Positions 6,331 through 16,985 are shown, numbered from the stretch's first letter. The stretch: DNA of 24,000 nucleotides from Pseudomonas sp. PDNC002 (GCF_016919445.1 NZ_CP070356.1:3575502-3599501), one strand, 5' to 3'. Notes: generated by a model from the sequence alone, not told the origin. Numbers and translations are program-made.

Positions 6331-6541
6331 ATGATTTTCACTGGTTTTTATAATCTGAAGGCATAAAAAATTCCGGCGGCAGGGTGACACGAGGCGCACA
6401 TGATGCAAGCCCGGAATCTGGATGAATCGCTCTGGCTCGGGGTGCGGCGGGTTATGACCTCATGCGATTAAGGTATTTAGGGCTGCGACCGGCCGTGGAT
6501 AGAGTGGCGATCCTTTCCGACCTCAACCTCCGTGGTTATCC

Positions 6542-7168
6542 ATGACCGACATTCGCCAACAACTCACCCAACAGATCATCGAGGCCGGGCGCTTCCTTTA
6601 CAGCCGCGGCTGGTCGCCGGCCACCAGCAGCAATTACTCGACGCGCCTGGCGGCCGATCGTGCGCTGCTCACCGTGTCCGGCAAGCACAAGGGCCAGCTT
6701 GGCATCGACGATGTGCTGGAAACGGACCTCGCCGGCAATAGCCTGGAGCCGGGCAAGAAACCCTCGGCGGAAACCCTGCTGCATACCCAGTTGTACGCCT
6801 GGCGCCCGGAGATCGGCGCGGTGCTGCATACCCATTCGGTGAATGCCACGGTGCTCTCGCGCCTGACCGTTGGCGACCGGCTGGAGCTGGAAGACTACGA
6901 ACTGCAGAAGGCTTTTTCCGGCGTCACCACCCACGAAGGCCGCGTCACCGTGCCGATCTTCGACAATGACCAGGACATCGCCCGCCTGGCGGCCAAGGTG
7001 CAGCCTTGGCTGGACGCCCACCCGGACTGCCCCGGTTACCTGATTCGTGGCCACGGCCTGTACACCTGGGGCGCGCGGATGAGTGATGCGCTGCGCCAGA
7101 TCGAAGCCTTCGAATTCCTCTTCGAATGCGAGCTGAAAGTCCTGAGCCTTCACGGTGGTGTGCGCTGA
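6542..7168 (+). CDS. mtnB: Methylthioribulose-1-phosphate dehydratase (class II aldolase/adducin fold, methionine salvage)
   Basis: 208 aa. The N-terminus QLTQQIIEAGRFLYSRGWSPATSSNYSTRL...LLTVSGKHKGQLG...SAETLLHTQLY...AVLHTHS closely matches my recollection of Pseudomonas MtnB, including the His metal ligands. Confidence 0.88.
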   Translation: MTDIRQQLTQQIIEAGRFLYSRGWSPATSSNYSTRLAADRALLTVSGKHKGQLGIDDVLETDLAGNSLEPGKKPSAETLLHTQLYAWRPEIGAVLHTHSVNATVLSRLTVGDRLELEDYELQKAFSGVTTHEGRVTVPIFDNDQDIARLAAKVQPWLDAHPDCPGYLIRGHGLYTWGARMSDALRQIEAFEFLFECELKVLSLHGGVR

Positions 7169-7336
7169 GCGAGGGACTTGGCGGATCGGCTTCCTGCTGT
7201 TCGGCGCGTTGTCCATGCGCGGCGATGCACCGCCGCCCTCAGGTGGCCGGGATGTTTGCCTGTAGCGCCGTCAGGTAGGCGCGCGAGCTCCCTGCGCGGC
7301 GACTCGCTGGAACGCGCCCGCTCCCGAGTGGACCGA

Positions 7337-7990
7337 TTACCGAATCCCCAGCCCCGCCAGCAGGACGTCCAGGCCCAGTTCGAAGGTCCGGTCGAAGTGC
7401 TCCGGCTGGAAGTATTCGCCCGCGCGGGACACCAGGGGGAAGTCTTCCGCGAGTTCTTCATCGGTGATGGGGCTGAGCGACGAGGTGCCCTCGGCGTAGC
7501 CATTGATCTCGTCCAGCGTGGCGCCCAGCACGTAGTAGCCGAGCACGCGGAAGCCTCGCGCGGCCGCCTCGTCGTCCAGACCGGCCGCCACGAAGCAATC
7601 GAGGATCTCGCCGAGGAACGCCACCCCGGTCCGTGAGTTCCAGCGATGCAGTGCCAGCCAGGTGTACAGGCGCGCGTGTTGCCGCGCCAGTTGCCGCCAT
7701 TGGGCGACCAGTTCCCTGAGGCGAGCGCCCGCTGTTTCGTCGCGGGAGGGGAACTGCACGGTGGAGAGCACCCGGTCCACCAGCGCGTCGAGGATGTGGG
7801 CCTTGCTCGGGAAGTAGTTGTAGATGCTCATCGCCTCGCATCCCAGGGCCGTGCCCAGGCGGCGCGTGCTGAAGCCTTCCAGGCCCTCCTGCTCGATGAG
7901 GCGTAGCGCCTCGGTCTCGATGCGCTCGTGTGTCAGGGGTTCGCGAGCGGGTGACTGCGACTCCTCGGTGATTGGCTTCTTGCGTGGCAC
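7337..7990 (-). CDS. TetR/AcrR-family transcriptional regulator
   Basis: N-terminal TetR HTH: IETEALRLIEQEGLEGFSTRRLGTALGCEAMSIYNYFPSKAHILDAL. The track ORF start (8029) is a TTG lying next to the operator. The GTG at 7990 has a GAGGGG RBS 6 nt upstream and is the preferred start (VPRKKPITEE...). Confidence 0.85.
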   Translation of the reverse strand: MPRKKPITEESQSPAREPLTHERIETEALRLIEQEGLEGFSTRRLGTALGCEAMSIYNYFPSKAHILDALVDRVLSTVQFPSRDETAGARLRELVAQWRQLARQHARLYTWLALHRWNSRTGVAFLGEILDCFVAAGLDDEAAARGFRVLGYYVLGATLDEINGYAEGTSSLSPITDEELAEDFPLVSRAGEYFQPEHFDRTFELGLDVLLAGLGIR

Positions 7991-8039
7991 GTGGCACCCC
8001 TCGAATAAAAGACTTGCAGTGTAAATCAACTTCTGCCAG

Positions 8040-8069
8040 CTTACATCGTAAGTTTACTTACGGTGTAAG
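8040..8069. promoter_or_regulatory. Tandem palindromes CTTAC-N3-GTAAG x2 (CTTACATCGTAAGT tt ACTTACGGTGTAAG); candidate TetR operator
   Basis: Two 13-bp palindromes (8040-8052 and 8057-8069) together form a 13/14 inverted repeat. They lie in the 94-bp divergent region between the tetR-like gene and the MAPEG gene. Confidence 0.55.
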
Positions 8070-8084
8070 TATGAAGGGGGAAAG

Positions 8085-8264
8085 ATGATCGAGATACCGA
8101 TAACGTCGTGTGTGGCAGCCGTGTCTGCGATTGCGCTGACTGGTCTGTCCGTGAATGTTTCCAGGTTGCGGATGCGCTATCGCGTCGGCCTTGGTCACGG
8201 TGGTCAGAAGGCGCTGCAGCTGGCCGTGGCGCCGGTCAATCTTTTCCTCAAAATTATCAATTAA
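8085..8264 (+). pseudogene. Truncated YecN-like MAPEG-family membrane protein (only the N-terminal ~50 residues are recognisable)
   Basis: ATG 8085 is preceded by AGGGGG. The translation is MIEIPITSCVAAVSAIALTGLSVNVSRLRMRYRVGLGHGGQKALQLAV... This matches the YecN/MAPEG N-terminus (..VVRLRMQYRV.YGDGG...LQ.AIR.HGN..EY). The expected HGNxxEYxP motif and the last ~70 aa are missing. The frame runs into the G-free tract and stops at 8262-8264. Confidence 0.6.
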
Positions 8265-8877
8265 ATTTCATAACTATCGACTCTATAAATAATTTTTAAC
8301 TTCATTTTAATTATTGTCTTTCTTATTTTTATTTTTCCATCCTAATTCCATTTACATCCATCTATATTCTCATCATTTAAATATATATTTATAAAATCAT
8401 CATCTCAACCATACAACACCTCTACCTTATAATCCATCATTCTCCCAATATATTCTATTTAAAGATTATATATTTATATTCCTACTCTCTAAACCTATTT
8501 TTCTTTAACATCTATATTTCATAACACAATTTCATTTAATAACTATATATTAATTCCCCAATTATTTATATAATAACTTTTACAATATCTACATTATTCA
8601 AATTATACTCATATCCAATTTCATCCCTCATCAAAATTAACATTTCATAAATACATACTCATTATTCTTTTATTCATAATAACCCCACCCAAAAAAATAA
8701 AACCAAAAAAAAACCTCCCCAAAAAAAAAAAACACCCCCAAAAAAAAAAAAAAATATAAATAAATATTTTCAAATTAAATTTTTATATATATATACAATT
8801 ATACCCTATATATATATATCCCCCCCCCCCCCCCCCCCCTATATAAATATATATACCCCCCCCACCCCCCCCCAATT
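8238..8877. other. G-depleted AT/C low-complexity tract with terminal homopolymer runs (artefact or anomalous insertion)
   Basis: I count only three G on the + strand between 8238 and 8877 (at 8279, 8316 and 8464). The flanks are typical high-GC sequence. Runs: A9 8705-8713, A12 8721-8732, A15 8740-8754, (TA)n around 8787-8819, C20 8820-8839, C8 8856-8863, C9 8865-8873. The tract contains no ORF, no terminal inverted repeats and no periodic repeat unit. Confidence 0.9.
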
Positions 8878-9226
8878 CGTATTTTCGTCGAGCGACGCAA
8901 CTGACCCTGCCACGCCGCGCCCCGGAGAGCGCTCCAGACACCTCGCACCCGAGAGCCCTCCCGAGTGCGAGCCCTCTCCGGATACACGAAGAACCTCCGC
9001 TGCCTACCTGAAAATCCGGCGACAGGCCGGGTTTCGCCCATCCGCGCCGCCTGGGCCGTTCGATGCGCCTGGGGCGGCGATTCGCGATGTCACGCCGAGT
9101 TGTTCAGGGCCCGCTTTGCCTGCGGGTCGCGCAGTGGCGCATGCCTTGCTCAAACCGCTGTGATACTTGCCGTTCCCACTCGCTCAGCATGGGCTTTCTA
9201 CACGGCGCTCAGGTTGACGAAATCCA

Positions 9227-9309
9227 TACAGATTTACATCCCTTGGTTGATTGATTAGGTTCGCCTTGTACCGCAGTTGATCAATATATTGATGGATAAT
9301 CAATGTGTT
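9227..9309. promoter_or_regulatory. AT-rich promoter region of the DUF1302 gene, with motifs shared with the 13816-13895 divergent promoter
   Basis: TACAGATTTAC (9227-9237), palindrome TTGATCAA (9277-9284), ATATATTGAT (9284-9293), inverted repeat ATTGAT-N5-ATCAAT (9288-9304) and ATCAATGTGTT (9299-9309). The same words recur at 13816-13895. Confidence 0.45.
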
Positions 9310-9398
9310 GATCGGCGACTTCGCCCAGGGCTGCTGTGCTGTGCCGGTCATCGAGAACCGGATTCTGCTCCCATAAGCACAATAACAAGGTGGAATAC

Positions 9399-11171
9399 GT
9401 GGAAAGAACCTTCTACCGCCGGCGCCTGCCCGTCGCGCTCGGCAGCCTCGTTCCTGCTCTTCTCGCATCCAGCGTCCAGGCGGTGACGTTCGAGGTCGGG
9501 GAGATCCAGGGGCAGTTCGACTCGTCCCTCTCCGTTGGCCAGAGCTGGGCGATGAATGATCCGAACCCGAACTTCATCAGCAAGGCCAATGGCGGACGCG
9601 GTGACTCCCAGACCACCGACGACGGCCGCTTGAATTTCAGGAAGGGCGAGACATTCTCGAAGATCTTCAAGGGGACGCACGACCTGGAATTGAAGTACGG
9701 CGACTGGGGGGCCTTCCTGCGAGGGAAGTACTGGTATGACTTCGAGCTGAAGGACGGGCACCAGCACCTCTACGACATCCAGGACAACGGCCGTGATCAG
9801 GCGGCGCGCTCCTCGGGTGCGCAGTTCCTCGACGCCTTCGTCTACCGCAACTACGACCTGGCCGGGCAGCCCGGCTCGGTCAGGCTGGGCAAGCAGGTCG
9901 TGAGCTGGGGGGGCAGTACCTTCATCCAGGGTGGCATCAACAGCATCAACCCGCTGGATGCCAACGCGCTGCGGCGTCCGGGTTCCGAGTTGAAGGAGGG
10001 GCTGATCCCGGTGCAGATGATCTATCTGCAACAGAGCCTCAGCGATGCCGTCAGCGTGGAAGGTTTCTACCAGCTGAAATGGCAGGGCACCGTGGCCGAT
10101 AACTGCGGGACCTTCTTCGCCAGCTCCGATCTTCCAGCCAAGGGCTGCGACGACCGCTACGTGCTCCAGGGCAAGGACATCAAGCCCGGCGCCTCGGACA
10201 ACAGCGGGCAGAACGGCAACACCATTTTCCTGCCGCGCGGACCGGACCGCGAACCGCGCGATGGCGGGCAGTACGGCCTGGCGCTGCGGTGGTTCGTGCC
10301 GGAGCTCAACGACACCGAGTTGAGCCTCTACTGGATGAATTATCACAGCCGCATGCCGATCGGCAGTTCGACGATGACCACCGCCAACCCGTTTACCGCG
10401 CCGCGTTTCGGTGCCGCGTCGGCGACCTATTTCCTGGAGTACCCCGAGGACATCCGCCTCTATGGCCTGAGCTTCAGCACCAACATCGCCGGCGCGGCTG
10501 TGGAAGGCGAGATCAGTCACCGACCGAATATGCCGCTGGGCTTCGACGACCTGATCTACGCCACGCTGCGCCTGTCGCCCGTCGTGCCGACGCCCATCGA
10601 GAACTCCGGTATCCCCGGCGACACCATCCATGGCTACAAGCGGGTGCCGTTCACCCAGGTCCAGACCACCGTCACCAAGACCTTCGACCAGGTCATGGGC
10701 GCGAGCCGCCTGACGCTGGTTGGCGAGGTTGGCTACAACCACATCTCCGGGATCGACGACGGCACCTACGGCCACCTGCGCTATGGCCGAGCCAGTCCTT
10801 TCGGGCCCGGCGAGTATTACGGCGCCAACGGCAATGACCTCTGCACCACGCTGCTCAGCGGTCGCCCCGAGTACTGCAACAACGACGGCTTCTACACCCG
10901 CAATTCCTGGGGATACCGCCTGCGCTCGGCGCTCACCTACAACGGCGTCATCGGCGGACTCGACCTCACGCCGAACCTGGCCTGGTCCCATGACGTCCAG
11001 GGTTACGGGACGAACTTCACCGAGGGCGGCAAGGCCGTCAGCGTCGGGCTGAACGCCGTTTACCTGTCCAAGTACAACGCCAGCATCAGTTACACCGATT
11101 TCTTCGGTGGCAAATACACCACCAACACCGATCGCGACTTCCTGAGCGTCAGTTTCGGCGTCAGCTTCTGA
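9399..11171 (+). CDS. DUF1302-family outer-membrane beta-barrel protein
   Basis: The track ORF (9336) starts at a GTG with no RBS. The GTG at 9399 follows AAGGTGG by 5 nt and gives a signal peptide (VERTFYRRRLPVALGSLVPALLASSVQA/VTFEVG). DUF1302 hallmark motifs are present: DDGRLNF.KGE, LGKQVVSWGGSTFIQGGINSINPLDANALRRPGSELKEGLIPV, and the C-terminal DRDFLSVSFGVSF. Confidence 0.88.
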   Translation: MERTFYRRRLPVALGSLVPALLASSVQAVTFEVGEIQGQFDSSLSVGQSWAMNDPNPNFISKANGGRGDSQTTDDGRLNFRKGETFSKIFKGTHDLELKYGDWGAFLRGKYWYDFELKDGHQHLYDIQDNGRDQAARSSGAQFLDAFVYRNYDLAGQPGSVRLGKQVVSWGGSTFIQGGINSINPLDANALRRPGSELKEGLIPVQMIYLQQSLSDAVSVEGFYQLKWQGTVADNCGTFFASSDLPAKGCDDRYVLQGKDIKPGASDNSGQNGNTIFLPRGPDREPRDGGQYGLALRWFVPELNDTELSLYWMNYHSRMPIGSSTMTTANPFTAPRFGAASATYFLEYPEDIRLYGLSFSTNIAGAAVEGEISHRPNMPLGFDDLIYATLRLSPVVPTPIENSGIPGDTIHGYKRVPFTQVQTTVTKTFDQVMGASRLTLVGEVGYNHISGIDDGTYGHLRYGRASPFGPGEYYGANGNDLCTTLLSGRPEYCNNDGFYTRNSWGYRLRSALTYNGVIGGLDLTPNLAWSHDVQGYGTNFTEGGKAVSVGLNAVYLSKYNASISYTDFFGGKYTTNTDRDFLSVSFGVSF

Positions 11172-11181
11172 GGAACAAACA

Positions 11182-12540
11182 ATGAGAAATACGATTCCGG
11201 CAGCGGGCCTGCTGTCTTTCTGCCTGTCTTTCATCAGCCCTGTTTCCCTGGCCGCGGTCGATGCGGCCAAGGCGGCAGAGCTGGGCTCCATACTGACGCC
11301 GGTCGGCGCCGAGCGTGCGGGCAACGAGGCGGGAACGATCCCGGCCTGGACGGGCGGGTTGGCGCCTGACGCGGGGCAGGTCAGGGACGGTACACACGGC
11401 GATCCTTTCGCCGGCGAGAAGCCGCTGTTCGTCATTACCCCGGCTACCCTCGAGCGCTACAAGGAGCGCCTGAGTCCCGGCCAGCTCGCGCTGTTCCAGC
11501 GTTACCCGGACACCTACCGCATCCCGGTGTACGCCAGCCATCGCACGGCGGCCTGGCCGGACAGCGCGTATGCCGCCGCCAAGCGCAACGCCACCAGCAC
11601 AGAGCTGGTCGCCGGTGGTAATGGCCTGAAGGACTACCAGGCGCCGCTGGCATTCCCGATTCCGCGCAACGGCCTGGAAGTGATCTGGAACCACATTACC
11701 CGTTACCGGGGTGGCAGCTTCGATCGCGAGACCAGCAGCTACCTGGTGACGCCCAACGGCGACTACTCCTGGAAGACCGAGCGTGACCGCCTGGCCTACA
11801 GCAACCAGCTCACCGACTACGACCCGGAGCGCTCGAAGAACATCCTCTACTACTTCACCTCGCTGAATATCGCACCGGCGCGGGATGTGGGCGATGTGCT
11901 GCTGGTCCACGAGACCCTGGACCAGGTCGCCGAGCCGAGAATGGCCTGGCAGTACAACGCCGGCCAGCGCCGGGTGCGTCGCGCACCCCAGGTGGCCTAT
12001 GACAGCCCCGGCCCCGGCAACCTGCGCACCAACGACCAACTGGACATGTTCAACGGCTCGCCCGATCGCTACGACTGGCAGCTGGTGGGCAAGCGCGAGC
12101 TCTACGTTCCCTACAACAGCTTCCGCCTTGCCGACCCGGCCAACAGCCCGGATAAACTGGTGCAGAAGGGGCACATCAACCAGAACCTGACGCGCTACGA
12201 ACTGCACCGCGTCTGGGAGGTGATCGCCACCCTGAAGCCGGGCCAGCGCCACGTCTATGCCAAGCGGCACCTGTACATCGACGAGGATACCTGGACCATT
12301 CTCGAAGCCGATCACTACGACAATCGCGGGACGCTGTGGCGCGTTTCCGAGAACCACACGCTGCCTTTCTACGACCAGAAAGTGGTGATCAGCGCAGGGG
12401 AGATGACCTACGACCTGACCTCCGGGCGCTATCTCGCCAACGGCATGTTCAACCAGATCAAGGATGCTTACCGCTTCGGCCTCAAGGCCAAGACTTCCGA
12501 CTTCACGCCCGCCGCCCTGCGCACCATCGGCATTCGCTGA
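11182..12540 (+). CDS. DUF1329-family (LolA-like / outer-membrane lipoprotein-sorting-like) periplasmic protein
   Basis: 452 aa. Signal peptide (LSFISPVSLA/AVD). DUF1329 hallmarks: LTPVGAERAGNEAGTIPAWTGGL, FPIPRNGLEVIWNHITRYRG, ELYVPYNSF. GAGGA RBS. It starts 10 nt after the DUF1302 stop. Confidence 0.88.
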   Translation: MRNTIPAAGLLSFCLSFISPVSLAAVDAAKAAELGSILTPVGAERAGNEAGTIPAWTGGLAPDAGQVRDGTHGDPFAGEKPLFVITPATLERYKERLSPGQLALFQRYPDTYRIPVYASHRTAAWPDSAYAAAKRNATSTELVAGGNGLKDYQAPLAFPIPRNGLEVIWNHITRYRGGSFDRETSSYLVTPNGDYSWKTERDRLAYSNQLTDYDPERSKNILYYFTSLNIAPARDVGDVLLVHETLDQVAEPRMAWQYNAGQRRVRRAPQVAYDSPGPGNLRTNDQLDMFNGSPDRYDWQLVGKRELYVPYNSFRLADPANSPDKLVQKGHINQNLTRYELHRVWEVIATLKPGQRHVYAKRHLYIDEDTWTILEADHYDNRGTLWRVSENHTLPFYDQKVVISAGEMTYDLTSGRYLANGMFNQIKDAYRFGLKAKTSDFTPAALRTIGIR

Positions 12541-12566
12541 AGCCAGGAAAGCAGCGGCAGGGAAGC

Positions 12567-12600
12567 AGGCCCGCCTCGTGAGAGGCGGGCCTTGTCGTTT
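12567..12600. terminator. Bidirectional hairpin terminator between convergent genes
   Basis: AGGCCCGCCTC (12567-12577), loop GTGA, GAGGCGGGCCT (12582-12592), followed by TGTCGTTT. This is an 11-bp perfect GC-rich stem between the DUF1329 stop (12540) and the regulator stop (12600). Confidence 0.6.
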
Positions 12601-13790
12601 CAGTCCGGCAGGGTGCCGGTGTAGCGGGCGCGCGGACGCAGCAGCGGGTACTGGTGATACTGCTCGCTGGCATGGGCAATCCAGCCAATGGCACGGCCGA
12701 CGCCGGCGAGGGCGATCTCCTGGCCCTGCAGGCCCAGTTTGCGGCCGACGAAGGTCAGCAGGAGGATGAAGTCCATGGGCTGCCCGGTCAGCTCCTCGGC
12801 GACCGTGGCTGCCTCCAGCAGGCTGCGGAACTCCGCATCCTTGGCGAACAGCCGATGCAGGCTCTGCAGCAGGCAGGTCGCGCGGGGATCGCTTTCGCCG
12901 TGCTGATTGGAGCCAAAGCCCAGGATGGCGCCATCCTCGCGGAAGCGCTGGACGATCGGGTCCGCCGGATGGCGGGCGGTGCAAATGTCGTCCAGCAGGC
13001 GTGCCACCGACTCGTTCCTGCCGTAGGCCAGGTGCCGGCCCCGTGACGTGGCGATGCCCACAATCGCGGCGTAGTAGGGCGTTATGCCGGTGTTCGCGGC
13101 CGCCCTCACGCTGTAGGTGGTGGGGTCGAGTTCATGGTCGATGGACAGGATCAACACCTGGCGGATCAGGTCGGCCAGCGCCTCGTTCACCCCCAGCGAT
13201 TCGGCGATGAACCGATGCAGGGGACGGTCATCGGGCACAGCTGCGCCGACCAGCAACGCAGCGAACCAGCGAACCACATCGACGCCGGTGCGGGCATAGC
13301 CTTCCACCGAGAGGTCGTGGGCGCGCGGGTTCTCACGCTCCAGCAGCGGGAACAGAGCGATCAGTTTTTCTCCCACGGCCAGGTCGCCCAGCGCCTTGAG
13401 CAGGGCGCCGGTGCCTTTCGGACGACGCGGCAGCGGCGCGTCGAAGACGCCTTCCGCCTGCCACATCAGTTCCGCTACCGCCTCGACGCTGGCGCTCGCG
13501 GCCAGTTGCGTCACGTCGTGCCCCCGGTAGTACAGCCCCTTGTCGGTCAGCAGCGTGATCGAGCTCTGCGCGCCAACGCGGGGAGCGTCGGTTCCGGATC
13601 CTGCTGTTGGCTTGAGCTTGCGCAGGCGTTCGATATCCGCCGCCCAGTACTTACGGCTGCGCGAGCCCTCGACCTTGAGCGAGCGGATGTTCTTCCGGCT
13701 GACGTAGGCATAAAGCGTCGGAAGGCTGATGCCGAGCGCGCTGGCGGCCTCGTCCGCGCTGAGGTAGAGATCGTCTTCTGGGGTGGACAT
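12600..13790 (-). CDS. Excisionase/MerR-type HTH fused to a citrate-synthase-like domain (putative ligand-sensing transcriptional regulator)
   Basis: 396 aa. The N-terminus LSADEAASALGISLPTLYAYVSRKNIRSLK is an HTH_17/excisionase-type DNA-binding motif. Residues ~75-396 align by eye with small citrate synthases (SITLLTDKGLYYRGHDVTQLA; LILSIDHELDPTTYSVRAAANTG; GFGSNQHGESDPRA; GRAIGWIAHASEQY; RPRARYTG). The catalytic GFGH motif reads GFGS. ATG 13790 has a GAGG RBS. Confidence 0.8.
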   Translation of the reverse strand: MSTPEDDLYLSADEAASALGISLPTLYAYVSRKNIRSLKVEGSRSRKYWAADIERLRKLKPTAGSGTDAPRVGAQSSITLLTDKGLYYRGHDVTQLAASASVEAVAELMWQAEGVFDAPLPRRPKGTGALLKALGDLAVGEKLIALFPLLERENPRAHDLSVEGYARTGVDVVRWFAALLVGAAVPDDRPLHRFIAESLGVNEALADLIRQVLILSIDHELDPTTYSVRAAANTGITPYYAAIVGIATSRGRHLAYGRNESVARLLDDICTARHPADPIVQRFREDGAILGFGSNQHGESDPRATCLLQSLHRLFAKDAEFRSLLEAATVAEELTGQPMDFILLLTFVGRKLGLQGQEIALAGVGRAIGWIAHASEQYHQYPLLRPRARYTGTLPD

Positions 13791-13815
13791 GGCGGCCTCG
13801 GATTGATGAATTTCG

Positions 13816-13895
13816 TACAGATTTACTATTTATGGGGGCCTATATATCTTGCTGTCAACATCAACAGAATACATATATTGATCAATGTATGTGTT
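13816..13895. promoter_or_regulatory. Divergent AT-rich promoter/operator region between the HTH-citrate-synthase-like regulator and the DUF1446 operon
   Basis: The 123-bp intergenic region (13791-13913) contains TACAGATTTAC (13816-13826), ATATATTGAT (13873-13882), the 10-bp perfect palindrome ATTGATCAAT (13877-13886) and ATCAATGT..TGTGTT (13881-13895). These are the same words as in 9227-9309. Confidence 0.5.
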
Positions 13896-13913
13896 CGCCA
13901 GACGGAGACACGC

Positions 13914-15278
13914 ATGGAAATTCGTGTTCTGGCGCCCAATGGCGCCATAGGCACCGGCTTCAAGGAAAGTTCGTTCGAGCGCGGGGTGTCGCTTGCCCCC
14001 CATGTGATTGCCTGTGACGCCGGTTCGACCGATTCGGGCCCGGCTTACCTGGGCAGCGGCAAGGCGCGGCTTTCCCGCGAAGCTTGCAAGCGCGACCTGC
14101 GCCTGCTCCTGCTGGCGCGTGACCGCTTGGGCGTTCCGCTGATCGTCGGGTCCTGCGGCACCAGCGGGAGGGACGCAGGGGTCAACTGGATGGCGGAGAT
14201 CGCGCTGGAGATCGCGGACGAGGAGGGGCTCAACTTCCGCCTCGCGCTGATCTACTCCGATCAGGACGGCGAGTACCTGAAGCAGCGCCTGGCCGATGGA
14301 CGCATTCAGGCGTTGCACCCGGCGCCGCCGCTCGACGAGCAGGTCATCGAACGCAGCCATGTGGTCGGCATGATGGGAACCGAGGCGCTGTCCGAAGCAC
14401 TGGATCAGGGCGCCGAGGTGATCCTGGCGGGCCGTGCCAGCGACTCGGCGCTGTTCGCCGTGGTGCCCGAGCGCCTCGGCGCCGATCGCGGGTTGGTCTG
14501 GCACGCGGCGAAGACCATCGAGTGCGGCGCGGCCTGCTGTGTCACGCCGGCTGCCGATGGCCTGATCGCGTATATCCGCGAGGACCATTTCGAGATCGAG
14601 CCGCTGGACCCGCAGGCGCGCGTGACGCCCTTGTCCATCGCCGCGCACACCCTCTACGAGAACGCCAACCCCTTCCTGCTCACCGAGCCGGCCGGCATCG
14701 TGGACACCGAGCACGCGGTATATACCGCGACGAGCGAGCGCAGCGTGCGGGTGAGCGGTTCGAAGTTCCATCCGGCACAACGCTACAGCATCAAGCTGGA
14801 AGGTTCCGAGCCGGTGGGCTTCCAGTCGGTGATCATCGGCGGTATCCGCGACCCGAAAATCTTCCTGGGCCTGGATCGGTTGATCCCGATGGCGAAGCAG
14901 TATTTCCAGCAGCGCGTCGCCCAGTTGTTCGGAGGCCGGCTTGGCCCCGAGGACTACGACATCAGCTTCCGCAGTTATGGTCGCGGCGCGGTGATGGGTG
15001 AACTGGAGGTCGAGCGCGACAGCGTGCCGATCGAAGTCGGGGTGCTGATCACCGTCACGGCACCGACGCAGGAGCTGGCGAGTAAGATCGCCACCTTCGT
15101 CAGCCATGTCAGCGCGCACCTGCCGGTGCCCGGCTACGAAGGCATCATCAGCACCATCGCCTATCCGTTCTCGCCGCCGTACCTGGAACGAGGCGCCGTC
15201 TACCGGTTCAGTCTCAACCACGTGCTGTTCCCCGACTCGCCCAGCGAAATGTTCCGTCGCAAGATGATCGAGGTGTAA
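13914..15278 (+). CDS. DUF1446 / AtuA-family protein (acyclic terpene utilisation AtuA N-terminal domain homologue), function unknown
   Basis: The track ORF (13134..15278) is open far upstream. The ATG at 13914 follows GGAGA by 5 nt and gives MEIRVLAPNGAIGTGF...ACDAGSTDSGPAYLG...IVGSCGTSG..., which is typical of DUF1446. The upstream part of the track ORF is the antisense of the regulator gene. Confidence 0.8.
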   Translation: MEIRVLAPNGAIGTGFKESSFERGVSLAPHVIACDAGSTDSGPAYLGSGKARLSREACKRDLRLLLLARDRLGVPLIVGSCGTSGRDAGVNWMAEIALEIADEEGLNFRLALIYSDQDGEYLKQRLADGRIQALHPAPPLDEQVIERSHVVGMMGTEALSEALDQGAEVILAGRASDSALFAVVPERLGADRGLVWHAAKTIECGAACCVTPAADGLIAYIREDHFEIEPLDPQARVTPLSIAAHTLYENANPFLLTEPAGIVDTEHAVYTATSERSVRVSGSKFHPAQRYSIKLEGSEPVGFQSVIIGGIRDPKIFLGLDRLIPMAKQYFQQRVAQLFGGRLGPEDYDISFRSYGRGAVMGELEVERDSVPIEVGVLITVTAPTQELASKIATFVSHVSAHLPVPGYEGIISTIAYPFSPPYLERGAVYRFSLNHVLFPDSPSEMFRRKMIEV

Positions 15279-15281
15279 TCC

Positions 15282-15593
15282 ATGACTCAACTCTTCGAAC
15301 TCTGCAGCCTGATCCGCTCCAAGAACGCCGGCCCGTTCATGCTCACCTTCGACCTGATGTTCGCATCGGCGGAGAGTTACCAGCGCGCCAAGCGGACCCA
15401 GCCCATCACCCGTGAGCTGATCTCGCGCATTTATCGCCAGCCGGAGGACGACATCACGCTGGTTTACCACGACGCGGCACAGGCGATAAAAATCTCCTTT
15501 CCCAGGCCGGTCTTCCAGGGCGAGCTGCACGACAGCGATTGCTACGGCGGTCAGCAATACGTGCCGCTGATGGGCATCACGGTCGCCGAATGA
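15282..15593 (+). CDS. DUF4387 protein (equivalent to the AtuA C-terminal ferredoxin-like domain)
   Basis: 103 aa: MTQLFELCSLIRSKNAGPFMLTFDLMF...AIKISFPRP. It starts 3 nt after the DUF1446 stop, with GAGGTG RBS. In full-length AtuA proteins this domain is fused to DUF1446, so the two genes read as a split AtuA. Confidence 0.75.
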   Translation: MTQLFELCSLIRSKNAGPFMLTFDLMFASAESYQRAKRTQPITRELISRIYRQPEDDITLVYHDAAQAIKISFPRPVFQGELHDSDCYGGQQYVPLMGITVAE

Positions 15594-15630
15594 TCACCTT
15601 CGATTCGCACAACAAGAATAAGGAATGAAC

Positions 15631-16920
15631 ATGGCCTGGGTCGGTTTTGCCATGGTGTTGACCTTCATGTACCTGATCATGAGCCAGCGGCTGTCCGCGG
15701 TCGTGGCGCTCATCCTGGTACCGGTCTGCTTTGCGGTTGCCTGCGGCTTCGGGCCGCAAACCGGAGGCATGGTGCTGGACGGCGTGCGTCAGCTCGCGCC
15801 CACGGCGCTGATGCTGATGTTTGCCATCCTGTTCTTCTCGATCATGTATGACGCCGGGTTATTCGAGCCGGCGGTGCGCCGGATCGTGCGGGCCGTGGGC
15901 AACGATCCGCTGCGGGTCAGCGTGGGAACCGCGGCCTTGTCGGCACTCATCTCCCTGGATGGCGACGGCTCGACCACGGTCCTGGTGGTCGTCACGTCCA
16001 TGCTGCCGGTCTATCGGCGCCTGGGCATGAACCCGCTGATTATCGCGACGCTGGTGTTGCTGACCAATACATCCATCAACCTGGTGCCCTGGGGCGGGCC
16101 CACGGCACGCGCGGCGAGCGCGCTGCACGTGGATGCCATGCAGGTCTTCCAGGGACTGGTTCCGACCATGATCGCCGGCATCGCTTTCGCCTTCCTGGCG
16201 GCGGTCTGGTTCGGCCTCCGGGAGCGCCGGCGCCTGGGATGGACGCCGCAGTCAGGGGAGGCGAATCTTTCCGAGGAGATCCTCGCCGAGGTCCGCGAAA
16301 CCCATCGCCCGAAGCTGTTCTGGGTCAACCTGGCGCTGACCATCGGCCTGGTGTTGTCCATGGCGCTCGGGCTGGGGCCGCTGCCGGTGCTGATGATGGT
16401 CGCCTTCGCCCTGGCATTGCTGATCAATTACCCGAGGCTGGATCAGCAAAAGGCGCGGATTGCCGCGCATGCCGACAATGTCCTCAACGTGCTGGCGCTG
16501 ATATTCGCCGCGGGCGCCTTCACCGGCATCCTGGCAGGCACCGGGATGGTGGACGCCATGTCGGGCAAGTTCCTGGCCGTGGTTCCCGAAAGCGCGGGCC
16601 CGTACCTGAGCGTCATCACGGCCTTTGCCAGCGTTCCGTTCACCTTCTTCATGTCCAACGACGCCTTCTACTTCGGCATCCTGCCGGTGCTGGCGAAAAG
16701 CGCTGCGCAATATGGCGTCGACCCGGTGCTGGTGGCCCGCGCATCGGTCCTCGGCCTGCCGGTCCATGCGCTCAGCCCGCTGGTGGCGGCGGGGTACCTG
16801 ATGAGCGGGTTGCTGAAGGTCGAGGTCGGCGCGCTCCAGCGGTTCTCCCTGAAATGGGCGCTTGCCAGCTCGCTGGTACTGATCGCCGCGGCCCTGGCAA
16901 GCGGCGCCATCCTGGCCTAG
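15631..16920 (+). CDS. CitMHS-family (citrate-divalent-metal:H+ symporter family) transporter
   Basis: About 429 aa, polytopic. The N-terminus MAWVGFAMVLTFMYLIMSQRLSAVVALILVPVCFAV and the internal LPVYRRLGMNPLIIATLVLL and NDAFYFGILPVL match the CitM/CitH family. The track start (15625) has AAGGA immediately abutting it. The ATG at 15631 has proper 6-nt spacing. Confidence 0.85.
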   Translation: MAWVGFAMVLTFMYLIMSQRLSAVVALILVPVCFAVACGFGPQTGGMVLDGVRQLAPTALMLMFAILFFSIMYDAGLFEPAVRRIVRAVGNDPLRVSVGTAALSALISLDGDGSTTVLVVVTSMLPVYRRLGMNPLIIATLVLLTNTSINLVPWGGPTARAASALHVDAMQVFQGLVPTMIAGIAFAFLAAVWFGLRERRRLGWTPQSGEANLSEEILAEVRETHRPKLFWVNLALTIGLVLSMALGLGPLPVLMMVAFALALLINYPRLDQQKARIAAHADNVLNVLALIFAAGAFTGILAGTGMVDAMSGKFLAVVPESAGPYLSVITAFASVPFTFFMSNDAFYFGILPVLAKSAAQYGVDPVLVARASVLGLPVHALSPLVAAGYLMSGLLKVEVGALQRFSLKWALASSLVLIAAALASGAILA

Positions 16921-16963
16921 GCAAGAGCACTTACCGTCTCACTCCAGTGCTGCTCCACCATTG

Positions 16964-16985
16964 ACCCGCTTCGGCGGGTTTTTTT
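16964..16985 (+). terminator. Rho-independent terminator of the DUF1446-DUF4387-CitMHS operon
   Basis: ACCCGC-TTCG-GCGGGT stem-loop (16964-16979) followed by a T7 run, 44 nt after the transporter stop. Confidence 0.75.

Follow-up and report, generated by a model that had tools for sequence, protein, structure and literature searches.

A candidate operator shared by two Pseudomonas promoters links a DUF1302/DUF1329 pair and an AtuA-like/DUF4387/CitMHS operon to a citrate-synthase-like regulator

GabR, a regulator of the MocR type, senses its ligand with a domain of enzyme fold, is encoded divergently from its target and regulates its own gene. Such regulators are the closest analogy in logic to the system described here: a DNA-binding domain is fused to a ligand sensor derived from a metabolic enzyme, and a small local regulon is controlled from an operator in the spacer common to the regulator gene and its divergent target operon. 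We examined a 24,000-nucleotide stretch of the Pseudomonas sp. PDNC002 genome (GCF_016919445.1, NZ_CP070356.1:3575502-3599501; hereafter the window), placed in Pseudomonas by the source names of its closest homologues. Within it, two promoters share exact sequence words, one ahead of a DUF1302 outer-membrane protein gene and the other in the spacer between an AtuA-like operon and a divergent gene that we call REG (12600-13790, minus strand), which encodes a helix-turn-helix joined to a citrate-synthase-like domain. MocR/GabR proteins combine an aminotransferase fold with a GntR-type domain, whereas REG has a citrate-synthase fold, an excisionase/MerR-like domain and a putative operator of the form TTGAy-N7-rTCAA. 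The comparative evidence presented below indicates that REG probably binds an inverted repeat at both promoters, and probably repeats in the two leaders as well, and so controls DUF1302-DUF1329, AtuA-like-DUF4387-CitMHS and itself.

The N-terminal helix-turn-helix (near-threshold matches to HTH_17 and MerR_1) and the C-terminal effector domain of REG also recall the MerR family, whose operators lie inside an over-long -35/-10 spacer of 19-20 base pairs (bp). A MerR-type spacer operator was ruled out here, the spacer being 17 bp and the dyad lying upstream of the -35 hexamer. The TTGAT/ATCAA pentamer is the half-site of the FNR/Anr box, TTGAT-N4-ATCAA. The two differ in spacing, 4 in that box and 7 here, and the present site travels with REG rather than with a protein of the CRP/FNR family. 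An FNR/Anr box was ruled out as well, as the window contains no match to TTGAT-N4-ATCAA at up to one mismatch. Citrate-responsive control of transporters is exercised elsewhere by the two-component systems CitST and CitAB and by CitO, CitI and CcpC. The likeness to these lies in a CitMHS-type citrate transporter under a local, probably carboxylate-sensing regulator, but their families and operators are unrelated to those of REG, and to our knowledge none of them has been reported to control an outer-membrane DUF1302/DUF1329 pair.

A two-gene DUF1302-DUF1329 unit with a dedicated neighbouring regulator has been described (bioRxiv 10.1101/2020.07.04.188060). It differs from the present system in the family of the regulator and in its linked genes, which concern fatty esters with BNR and RND partners; here DUF1302/DUF1329 is linked to CitMHS and AtuA-like/DUF4387 genes, and in other taxa TonB-dependent receptors fill its slot. 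The function of the pair is debated, with export of a cell-wall component (bioRxiv 10.1101/072470) and esterase activity (bioRxiv 10.1101/2020.07.04.188060) as the existing proposals. A search of the accessible literature library returned nothing on the REG family, on DUF4387 or on a link between AtuA and CitMHS; the one paper in which terms for both REG domains occur, a Streptomyces TetR lipidome study, appeared unrelated from its title.

The two promoters lie about 4.6 kb apart. A preliminary description of the window had reported four words common to both, and all are present: the 11-mer TACAGATTTAC at 9227-9237 upstream of DUF1302 and at 13816-13826 in the divergent promoter, ATATATTGAT at 9284-9293 and 13873-13882, ATCAATGT at 9299-9306 and 13881-13888, and TGTGTT at 9304-9309 and 13890-13895. 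The palindromic core elements that it noted (ATTGATCAAT at 13877-13886, TTGATCAA at 9277-9284 and ATTGAT-N5-ATCAAT at 9288-9304) are there too, as are its additional half-sites (GTTGAT/ATTGAT at 9246-9255, GTTGAT at 9307-9312, ATTGAT at 13802-13807 and ATCAAC at 13860-13865). TACAGATTTAC and ATATATTGAT fall on one diagonal with an offset of 4589, and a 13-mer overlooked earlier, TTGATCAATATAT at 9277-9289, recurs as its reverse complement at 13873-13885.

Chance rates were obtained from dinucleotide-preserving shuffles of the two spacers. An 11-mer match on either strand has a probability of about 0.010-0.015, in agreement with the earlier rough estimate of 1 in 100, and a 13-mer match one of about 0.001-0.002; two runs totalling 21 on one diagonal arose in 0/3000 shuffles. 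In the complete genome that contains the window (G000; 6,393,486 bp, 64.9% G+C), TACAGATTTAC and TTGATCAATATAT have two occurrences each, all of them at these two promoters. From the shuffles and from the uniqueness of the words to these sites in 6.39 Mb, the sharing between the promoters is far beyond chance, and a repeated or mobile element is ruled out as its source because the words occur only twice in the genome.

Similarity between the promoters reaches upstream of the 11-mer, to GTTGACGAAATCCATACAGATTTAC (9213-9237) and ATTGATGAATTTCGTACAGATTTAC (13802-13826). TACAGATTTAC, one of the words listed earlier, is real but incomplete, constituting only the 3' part of a 25-bp composite site (Element 1) with the consensus rTTGAy-N7-rTmmA-GATTkAC, that is, a 17-bp inverted repeat followed by a -35 hexamer. 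Element 1 of the DUF1302 promoter (9213-9237, plus strand) reads GTTGAC-GAAATCC-ATACA-GATTTAC, and its 17-bp imperfect inverted repeat, TTGAC-N7-ATACA, abuts and overlaps the -35 hexamer. Element 1 of the divergent promoter (13802-13826, plus strand) reads ATTGAT-GAATTTC-GTACA-GATTTAC, and its outer arm is 12 nucleotides (nt) from the REG ATG. Composite sites found elsewhere include ATTGACGAAATCTGTACAGATTGAC in Bradyrhizobium and GTTGACGAAAAAAATCAAGATTTAC before CitMHS in Pseudomonas sp. D1-36.

Conservation in orthologous loci had been set beforehand as a test that could refute shared regulation, and the motifs passed it. We compared 79 foreign loci encoding REG relatives of 34-68% identity (designated by L-numbers; Pseudomonas, Alloalcanivorax, Steroidobacteraceae, Burkholderiaceae, Caulobacter, Acetobacteraceae, Bradyrhizobium and others), as well as two genomes from the same genus as the window. 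At least one site is present in 64/79 of these loci and at least two in 27/79. An unseeded, strand-specific count of 8-mers in the 215 bp upstream of REG in the foreign loci was headed by TCAAGATT (28 loci), TACAGATT (24), AGATTTAC (23) and AGATTGAC (21), which are oriented away from REG with exceptions in 0-2 loci each; the palindromic ATATTGAT/ATCAATAT came next (15-16 loci). By this ranking, both motifs of the preliminary description are the most conserved words of the orthologous promoters. The DUF1302-side Element 1 is conserved in a second species genome of the same genus (G006) and stands before DUF1302 in L032-L040, L046, L058, L060 and L090/91/98, in three different gene arrangements that include Bradyrhizobium. 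The divergent-side Element 1 is conserved in G006, L032 and L033/34.

The site is also specific. A matrix trained on 94 distinct sites from the 79 foreign loci, with the window and G006 held out, gave each of the two window sites 39.6 bits, the joint top score in the genome; the runner-up, in AT-rich sequence, scored 20.5 bits, leaving a gap of about 19 bits. Across 34 species genomes of the genus, the pattern TTGAYN7RTMMAGATTKAC has 2 matches in G000, 2 in G006 and 0 in the other 32, a reversed control pattern has no match in any of the 34, and REG orthologues are confined to the same two genomes as the motif. G000 itself carries 14 DUF1302 genes and 2 AtuA-family genes, and the site stands only at the window copies (1/14 and 1/2). 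A generic feature of DUF1302 promoters is ruled out by its absence from the other 13 DUF1302 genes; a second DUF1329/DUF1302 pair beside the G006 cassette is also without it.

In 56/99 related sites the distance from the TTkACn hexamer to a downstream TAnnnT is exactly 17 bp, and no other offset from 0 to 59 is represented more than 6 times. This peak identifies the 3' end of the composite as the -35 hexamer. The DUF1302 promoter would accordingly consist of a -35 TTTACA (9233-9238) and a -10 TAGGTT (9256-9261), both on the plus strand, with a predicted start near 9268; TAGGyT also occurs at 17 bp in L033 and L040. For the AtuA-like operon, the predicted hexamers are TTTACT (13822-13827) and TATCTT (13845-13850), again on the plus strand, with a start near 13857 and with TATC(T/G)T at 17 bp in the window, G006, L032 and L033. 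The pairs TTTACA-17-TAGGTT and TTTACT-17-TATCTT both fall within the 16-18 bp spacing of sigma-70 promoters, and the 17-bp inverted repeat spans about -54 to -38 relative to the predicted start. Both promoters thus appear to be of sigma-70 type and built on one template, in which TTGAy-N7-rTmmA is followed by GATTkAC (the -35), by TAnnnT 17 bp on and then by leader repeats. REG's own promoter was not convincingly placed: a perfect TTGACA (13858-13853, minus strand) has no good -10 hexamer 16-18 bp away.

The citrate-synthase-like domain of REG matches Pfam Citrate_synt with E = 4.3e-32, and all NCBIfam citrate-synthase models score it far below cut-off (best 85.7 against 421 bits). Aligned to Escherichia coli citrate synthase, REG has Ala at the His of GPxHGGA, Ser at the His of GFGHRVY and Thr at the catalytic Asp; it retains the His of HxDHE and the Arg residues of DPR, RxxGW and RPR, which we take to be those that hold the carboxylates of citrate or oxaloacetate in citrate synthase. 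We reject REG as a citrate synthase enzyme on the replacement of the catalytic His/His/Asp and the scores below the family cut-offs; having lost its catalytic residues and kept those that hold carboxylates, it may instead serve as a sensor. Homologues number about 2,900 at E <= 1e-20, and many carry PF12728, PF13411 or PF00376. Among the related loci REG adjoins AtuA-like/DUF4387 genes almost everywhere and often CitMHS, and in Pseudomonas it lies beside DUF1302/DUF1329 in three different arrangements.

Several observations connect the inverted repeat with REG, the sole DNA-binding protein common to the loci. A site lies at most 200 bp upstream of REG, pointing away from it, in 41/79 loci, with a median of 17 nt (mostly 12-18) from the outer arm to the start codon. 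At 12-18 nt from the REG start, the 5' untranslated region of REG must be transcribed across the operator, a geometry for autoregulation. The two arms co-vary, TTGAy occurring with rTCAA in 35 sites and TGnAC with rTACA in 30, with 22 mixed (Fisher P = 4.5e-6, relatedness not corrected), as a symmetric dimer would predict. A maximum-likelihood tree of 80 REG proteins requires at least four changes from Ser to Gly in the helix motif TLYAYV[S/G]RK, four being forced by well-supported branches, and all three Gly lineages that have sites carry the TGnAC/rTACA type. This evidence is correlative and points to REG, rather than an unrelated factor, as the protein to which the motif belongs. The preliminary reading of the two promoters as one regulon is thus supported in silico by the conservation of the site, its occurrence at DUF1302 promoters, its co-occurrence with REG and its specificity.

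Repeats with similar arms (Element 2) are found downstream of both predicted starts. The DUF1302 leader carries alternating TTGAT/ATCAA half-sites (9277-9312, plus strand), which include TTGATCAA, the perfect palindrome ATCAATATATTGAT (9280-9293) and TTGAT-N5-ATCAA (9289-9303). The AtuA leader carries a 22-bp near-perfect palindrome, ACATATATTGATCAATGTATGT (13871-13892, plus strand; 20/22 positions), which contains TTGATCAA, is identical in G006 and is palindromic in L032 and L033. Across the comparison set, TTGAy-N7-rTCAA lies 50-63 bp downstream of AGATT at 26/101 sites, against 0/101 upstream controls and 0.4% of shuffles, with a spacer of 7 in 16 cases and of 8 in 4. The earlier view of these repeats as a common operator holds as to their conservation and needs refinement as to their place, which is the transcribed leader, and as to their spacing, which in the window's clade departs from the canonical N7. 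Element 2 could be a second operator, an RNA hairpin or both.

The rest of the DUF1302 leader, which is about 130 nt long, is 95.3% identical between G000 and G006 (9313-9398, plus strand), far more than third codon positions (64-70%). It includes AATAACAA (9381-9388), an AAnAAnAA word just before the ribosome-binding site and 10 nt before the GTG start; A-rich motifs of this kind are used by Crc/Hfq in Pseudomonas, and similar words stand ahead of CitMHS in L047-L052. Some Steroidobacteraceae and Usitatibacteraceae loci (L054 near 9848, L077) have the AtuA start codon immediately after the right arm of the leader repeat (GTCAAC-ATG), and a Shine-Dalgarno sequence is not apparent there. At loci of this type, occupancy of the repeat or formation of a hairpin could act directly on translation initiation.

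If REG is the protein that binds, the inverted repeat would be its operator, and its complete regulon here would comprise DUF1302-DUF1329, AtuA-like-DUF4387-CitMHS and REG itself. As to the mode of control, we lean somewhat toward repression: REG would occupy the region beside and over a good -35 hexamer, and perhaps the leader repeats, until released by a citrate-like di- or tricarboxylate that the system imports. Repression is favoured by the consensus -35 and optimal spacing of many related promoters, by an operator that covers the UP-element region and abuts the -35, by the further repeats in the leaders and by the operator in REG's own untranslated region. Alternatively, REG could bind the same sites and activate, recruiting RNA polymerase from a site centred near -46, with ligand switching the operons on. 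A position directly upstream of and abutting the -35 is common for activators, and the promoters of the window's clade combine the weaker -35 TTTAC with poor -10 hexamers (TAGGTT and TATCTT). Against this, roughly half the related sites combine a consensus TTGAC -35 with the optimal 17-bp spacing and should fire unaided, the A-rich N7 spacer resembles an UP element that, as we read it, would be covered by bound protein, and extra leader repeats and an operator on REG's own 5' untranslated region fit repression; activation is possible and we consider it the less likely mode. Similarly doubtful is the idea that only Element 1 binds protein and that Element 2 (9277-9312 and 13871-13892) is an RNA hairpin governing stability or translation rather than a DNA operator. 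Both leaders do fold into long hairpins (15 bp in the DUF1302 leader, z = -2.6; 13 bp in the AtuA leader, 13867-13896, z = -3.0), in which the four positions that depart from perfect pairing are all G-U on the sense strand; without exception Element 2 falls downstream of the predicted start and ahead of the ribosome-binding site, and its variable arm spacing (-2, 5, 6, 7 and 8) would be better tolerated by a loop than by a rigid dimer and to that extent favours a hairpin. The sequence of the arms, TTGAy...rTCAA, is nevertheless itself conserved beyond complementarity from Pseudomonas to Bradyrhizobium and Burkholderiaceae, and the same sequence forms the arms of Element 1, an untranscribed element upstream of the promoter, a fact that favours recognition as DNA by a protein. 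No Rfam match was found in 8880-14000 except a sub-threshold one at the terminator, and no U-run follows the leader hairpins, which rules out an intrinsic attenuator. The hairpin and operator roles can coexist.

Two further explanations dispense with REG. A different protein, either a global regulator or one like Anr/FNR, might recognise the motif, with REG a mere neighbour: TTGAT is the FNR/Anr half-site, and the assignment of REG to the site is an inference. This is very improbable given the absence of FNR/Anr boxes from the window (above), the restriction of the site to REG-bearing genomes and loci, its mere two occurrences in this genome, the lack of any other DNA-binding protein common to the loci and the manner in which operator type tracks the helix-turn-helix residue of REG. 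More improbable still is that the shared words reflect no common regulation, being leftovers of a promoter duplication or products of -35 hexamers and AT-rich composition. TTTAC is indeed part of the -35 hexamer, both regions are AT-rich islands, and the two longest words are 57 bp apart in both, as duplication would leave them. However, outside the motif blocks only 55/126 positions match on the shared diagonal, which is background; distant lineages of Pseudomonadota conserve the block that precedes the -35 but not its flanks; in P. gingeri the motif spacing at these same two promoters is unequal (53 and 57 bp); and the other 13 DUF1302 promoters of the genome are without the site. A simple duplication is ruled out by the background identity outside the blocks together with the conservation of the motif across distant lineages.

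Regulation of both promoters by REG through the inverted repeat remains our preferred reading, and several observations weigh against it. The window operators are of mixed type, with a TTGAy left arm and an rTACA right arm, and thus form an imperfect dyad, and their leader repeats have spacings of -2 and 5 rather than the canonical 7. The helix-turn-helix of REG scores just under the cut-offs of its models (HTH_17, 25.7 against 27 bits; MerR_1, 20.8 against 21.6; TIGR01764, 27.1 against 28.8). A few Ser-type REG lineages also carry the TGnAC/rTACA operator type, and the most basal REG subfamily (L100-L110; 34-36% identity; Bradyrhizobium, Mesorhizobium and Acidobacteriota) has no Element 1 site; AtuA and CitMHS genes are likewise absent within 10 kb of its members, which probably use a different operator and regulate different targets. 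The co-occurrence of motif and REG within the genus counts as one event, since G000 and G006 share one cassette, and related loci are not independent samples, so that statistics across them overstate independence. Finally, the -35 and -10 hexamers of the window fall below the threshold of a simple consensus scan and were not flagged by it; the scan offers a rival promoter instead, CTGTCA-16-TATATT at 13852-13879. The comparative evidence favours the 17-bp model over this rival; in several loci the leader repeat abuts the ribosome-binding site or start codon, leaving no room there for a promoter over the repeat.

The genes concerned form three transcription units, as judged from terminator-like hairpins after DUF1329 and CitMHS. 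The DUF1302 gene (9399-11171, plus strand; PF06980, E = 1.4e-170) begins with GTG and is followed by the gene for the LolA-like DUF1329 protein (11182-12540, plus strand; PF07044, E = 5.7e-144). Between DUF1329 and the convergent REG lies a GC-rich hairpin (12567-12592; 11-bp stem with 9 G-C pairs), a likely terminator. The divergent operon contains the AtuA-like gene (13914-15278, plus strand; PF07287, E = 6e-16), DUF4387 (15282-15593, plus strand; PF14330, E = 5.6e-33) and the transporter gene (15625-16920, plus strand; TIGR00784, 516.3 bits against a cut-off of 259.7; PF03600, E = 1.2e-33), and ends in an intrinsic terminator (16963-16980, plus strand). The transporter belongs to the CitMHS family by a full-length match above the curated cut-off. 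The AtuA-like protein is 26% identical over 237 amino acids to the canonical 615-residue AtuA-family open reading frame of the genome (genome position 5239503). The DUF4387 protein has no BLASTP match to that reading frame, and the earlier label of a split AtuA was not borne out.

Across the related loci, the first gene after the site is most often CitMHS (22 sites) or a TonB-dependent receptor (21), followed by DUF1302 (17), AtuA-like genes (10) and MipA (7), and more rarely by MFS carriers (5), TauD-like dioxygenases (4), secretory-lipase-like hydrolases (2), MetA-type outer-membrane channels (2) and PrpD/MmgE (1). The recurring combination is an outer-membrane component with an inner-membrane carrier and an AtuA-like/DUF4387 enzyme, a pattern that lends support to the idea, already put forward in the preliminary description, of envelope-spanning uptake and conversion. 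It suggests, from gene content, that DUF1302/DUF1329 fills the role held elsewhere by TonB-dependent receptors.

The six-gene cluster is a self-contained 7.7-kb block (window 9206-16910) that is 86.5% identical to 6428-14117 of the cassette locus of G006 (L031). It opens 7 bp upstream of the first operator and closes about 10 bp short of the CitMHS stop, and the G006 sequences that match the window flanks are located far from its cassette. Between the two genomes the divergent spacer (13791-13913) is 93.5% identical, the DUF1302 operator/promoter region (9213-9312) 86% and the rest of its leader 95%, against 64-70% for third codon positions and 59% for the convergent spacer; identity above these comparison values argues that the three non-coding regions are under purifying selection. 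The second DUF1329/DUF1302 pair of G006 (56% and 51% identity) lies directly downstream of its cassette on the opposite strand (L031 14242-17402). Upstream of the cassette in the window is a tract of about 640 bp (8240-8878) that is nearly G-free on the plus strand, with G-free runs at 8317-8463 and 8465-8878 and a G+C content of 16-28%. It ends in poly-A and poly-C (C20 at 8821-8840), truncates a small open reading frame that starts at ATG 8086 and has no counterpart elsewhere in the 6.39-Mb genome; an assembly artefact or foreign junk could account for it.

The circuit itself, a local regulator with its operator and two operons, is of an ordinary type; what is new is an undescribed regulator family with its operator and a functional lead for DUF1302/DUF1329. 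The finding gives this widespread regulator family an operator, a promoter architecture and a regulon of two operons. The 25-bp site has no match in the 32 genomes without REG, a specificity that suffices for regulon prediction wherever REG is encoded. The regulon places DUF1302/DUF1329 beside a citrate-type carrier. We tentatively suggest that the pair could be an outer-membrane uptake device for a citrate-like carboxylate, functionally interchangeable with the TonB-dependent receptors of other Pseudomonadota lineages, in a route governed by a dead-citrate-synthase sensor that still binds its substrate. If so, the route would span the envelope, from the outer-membrane device through a CitMHS or MFS carrier to the AtuA-like/DUF4387 enzyme, and DUF1302/DUF1329 would gain a concrete role: uptake under substrate-sensing control, a third hypothesis beside export and esterase activity.

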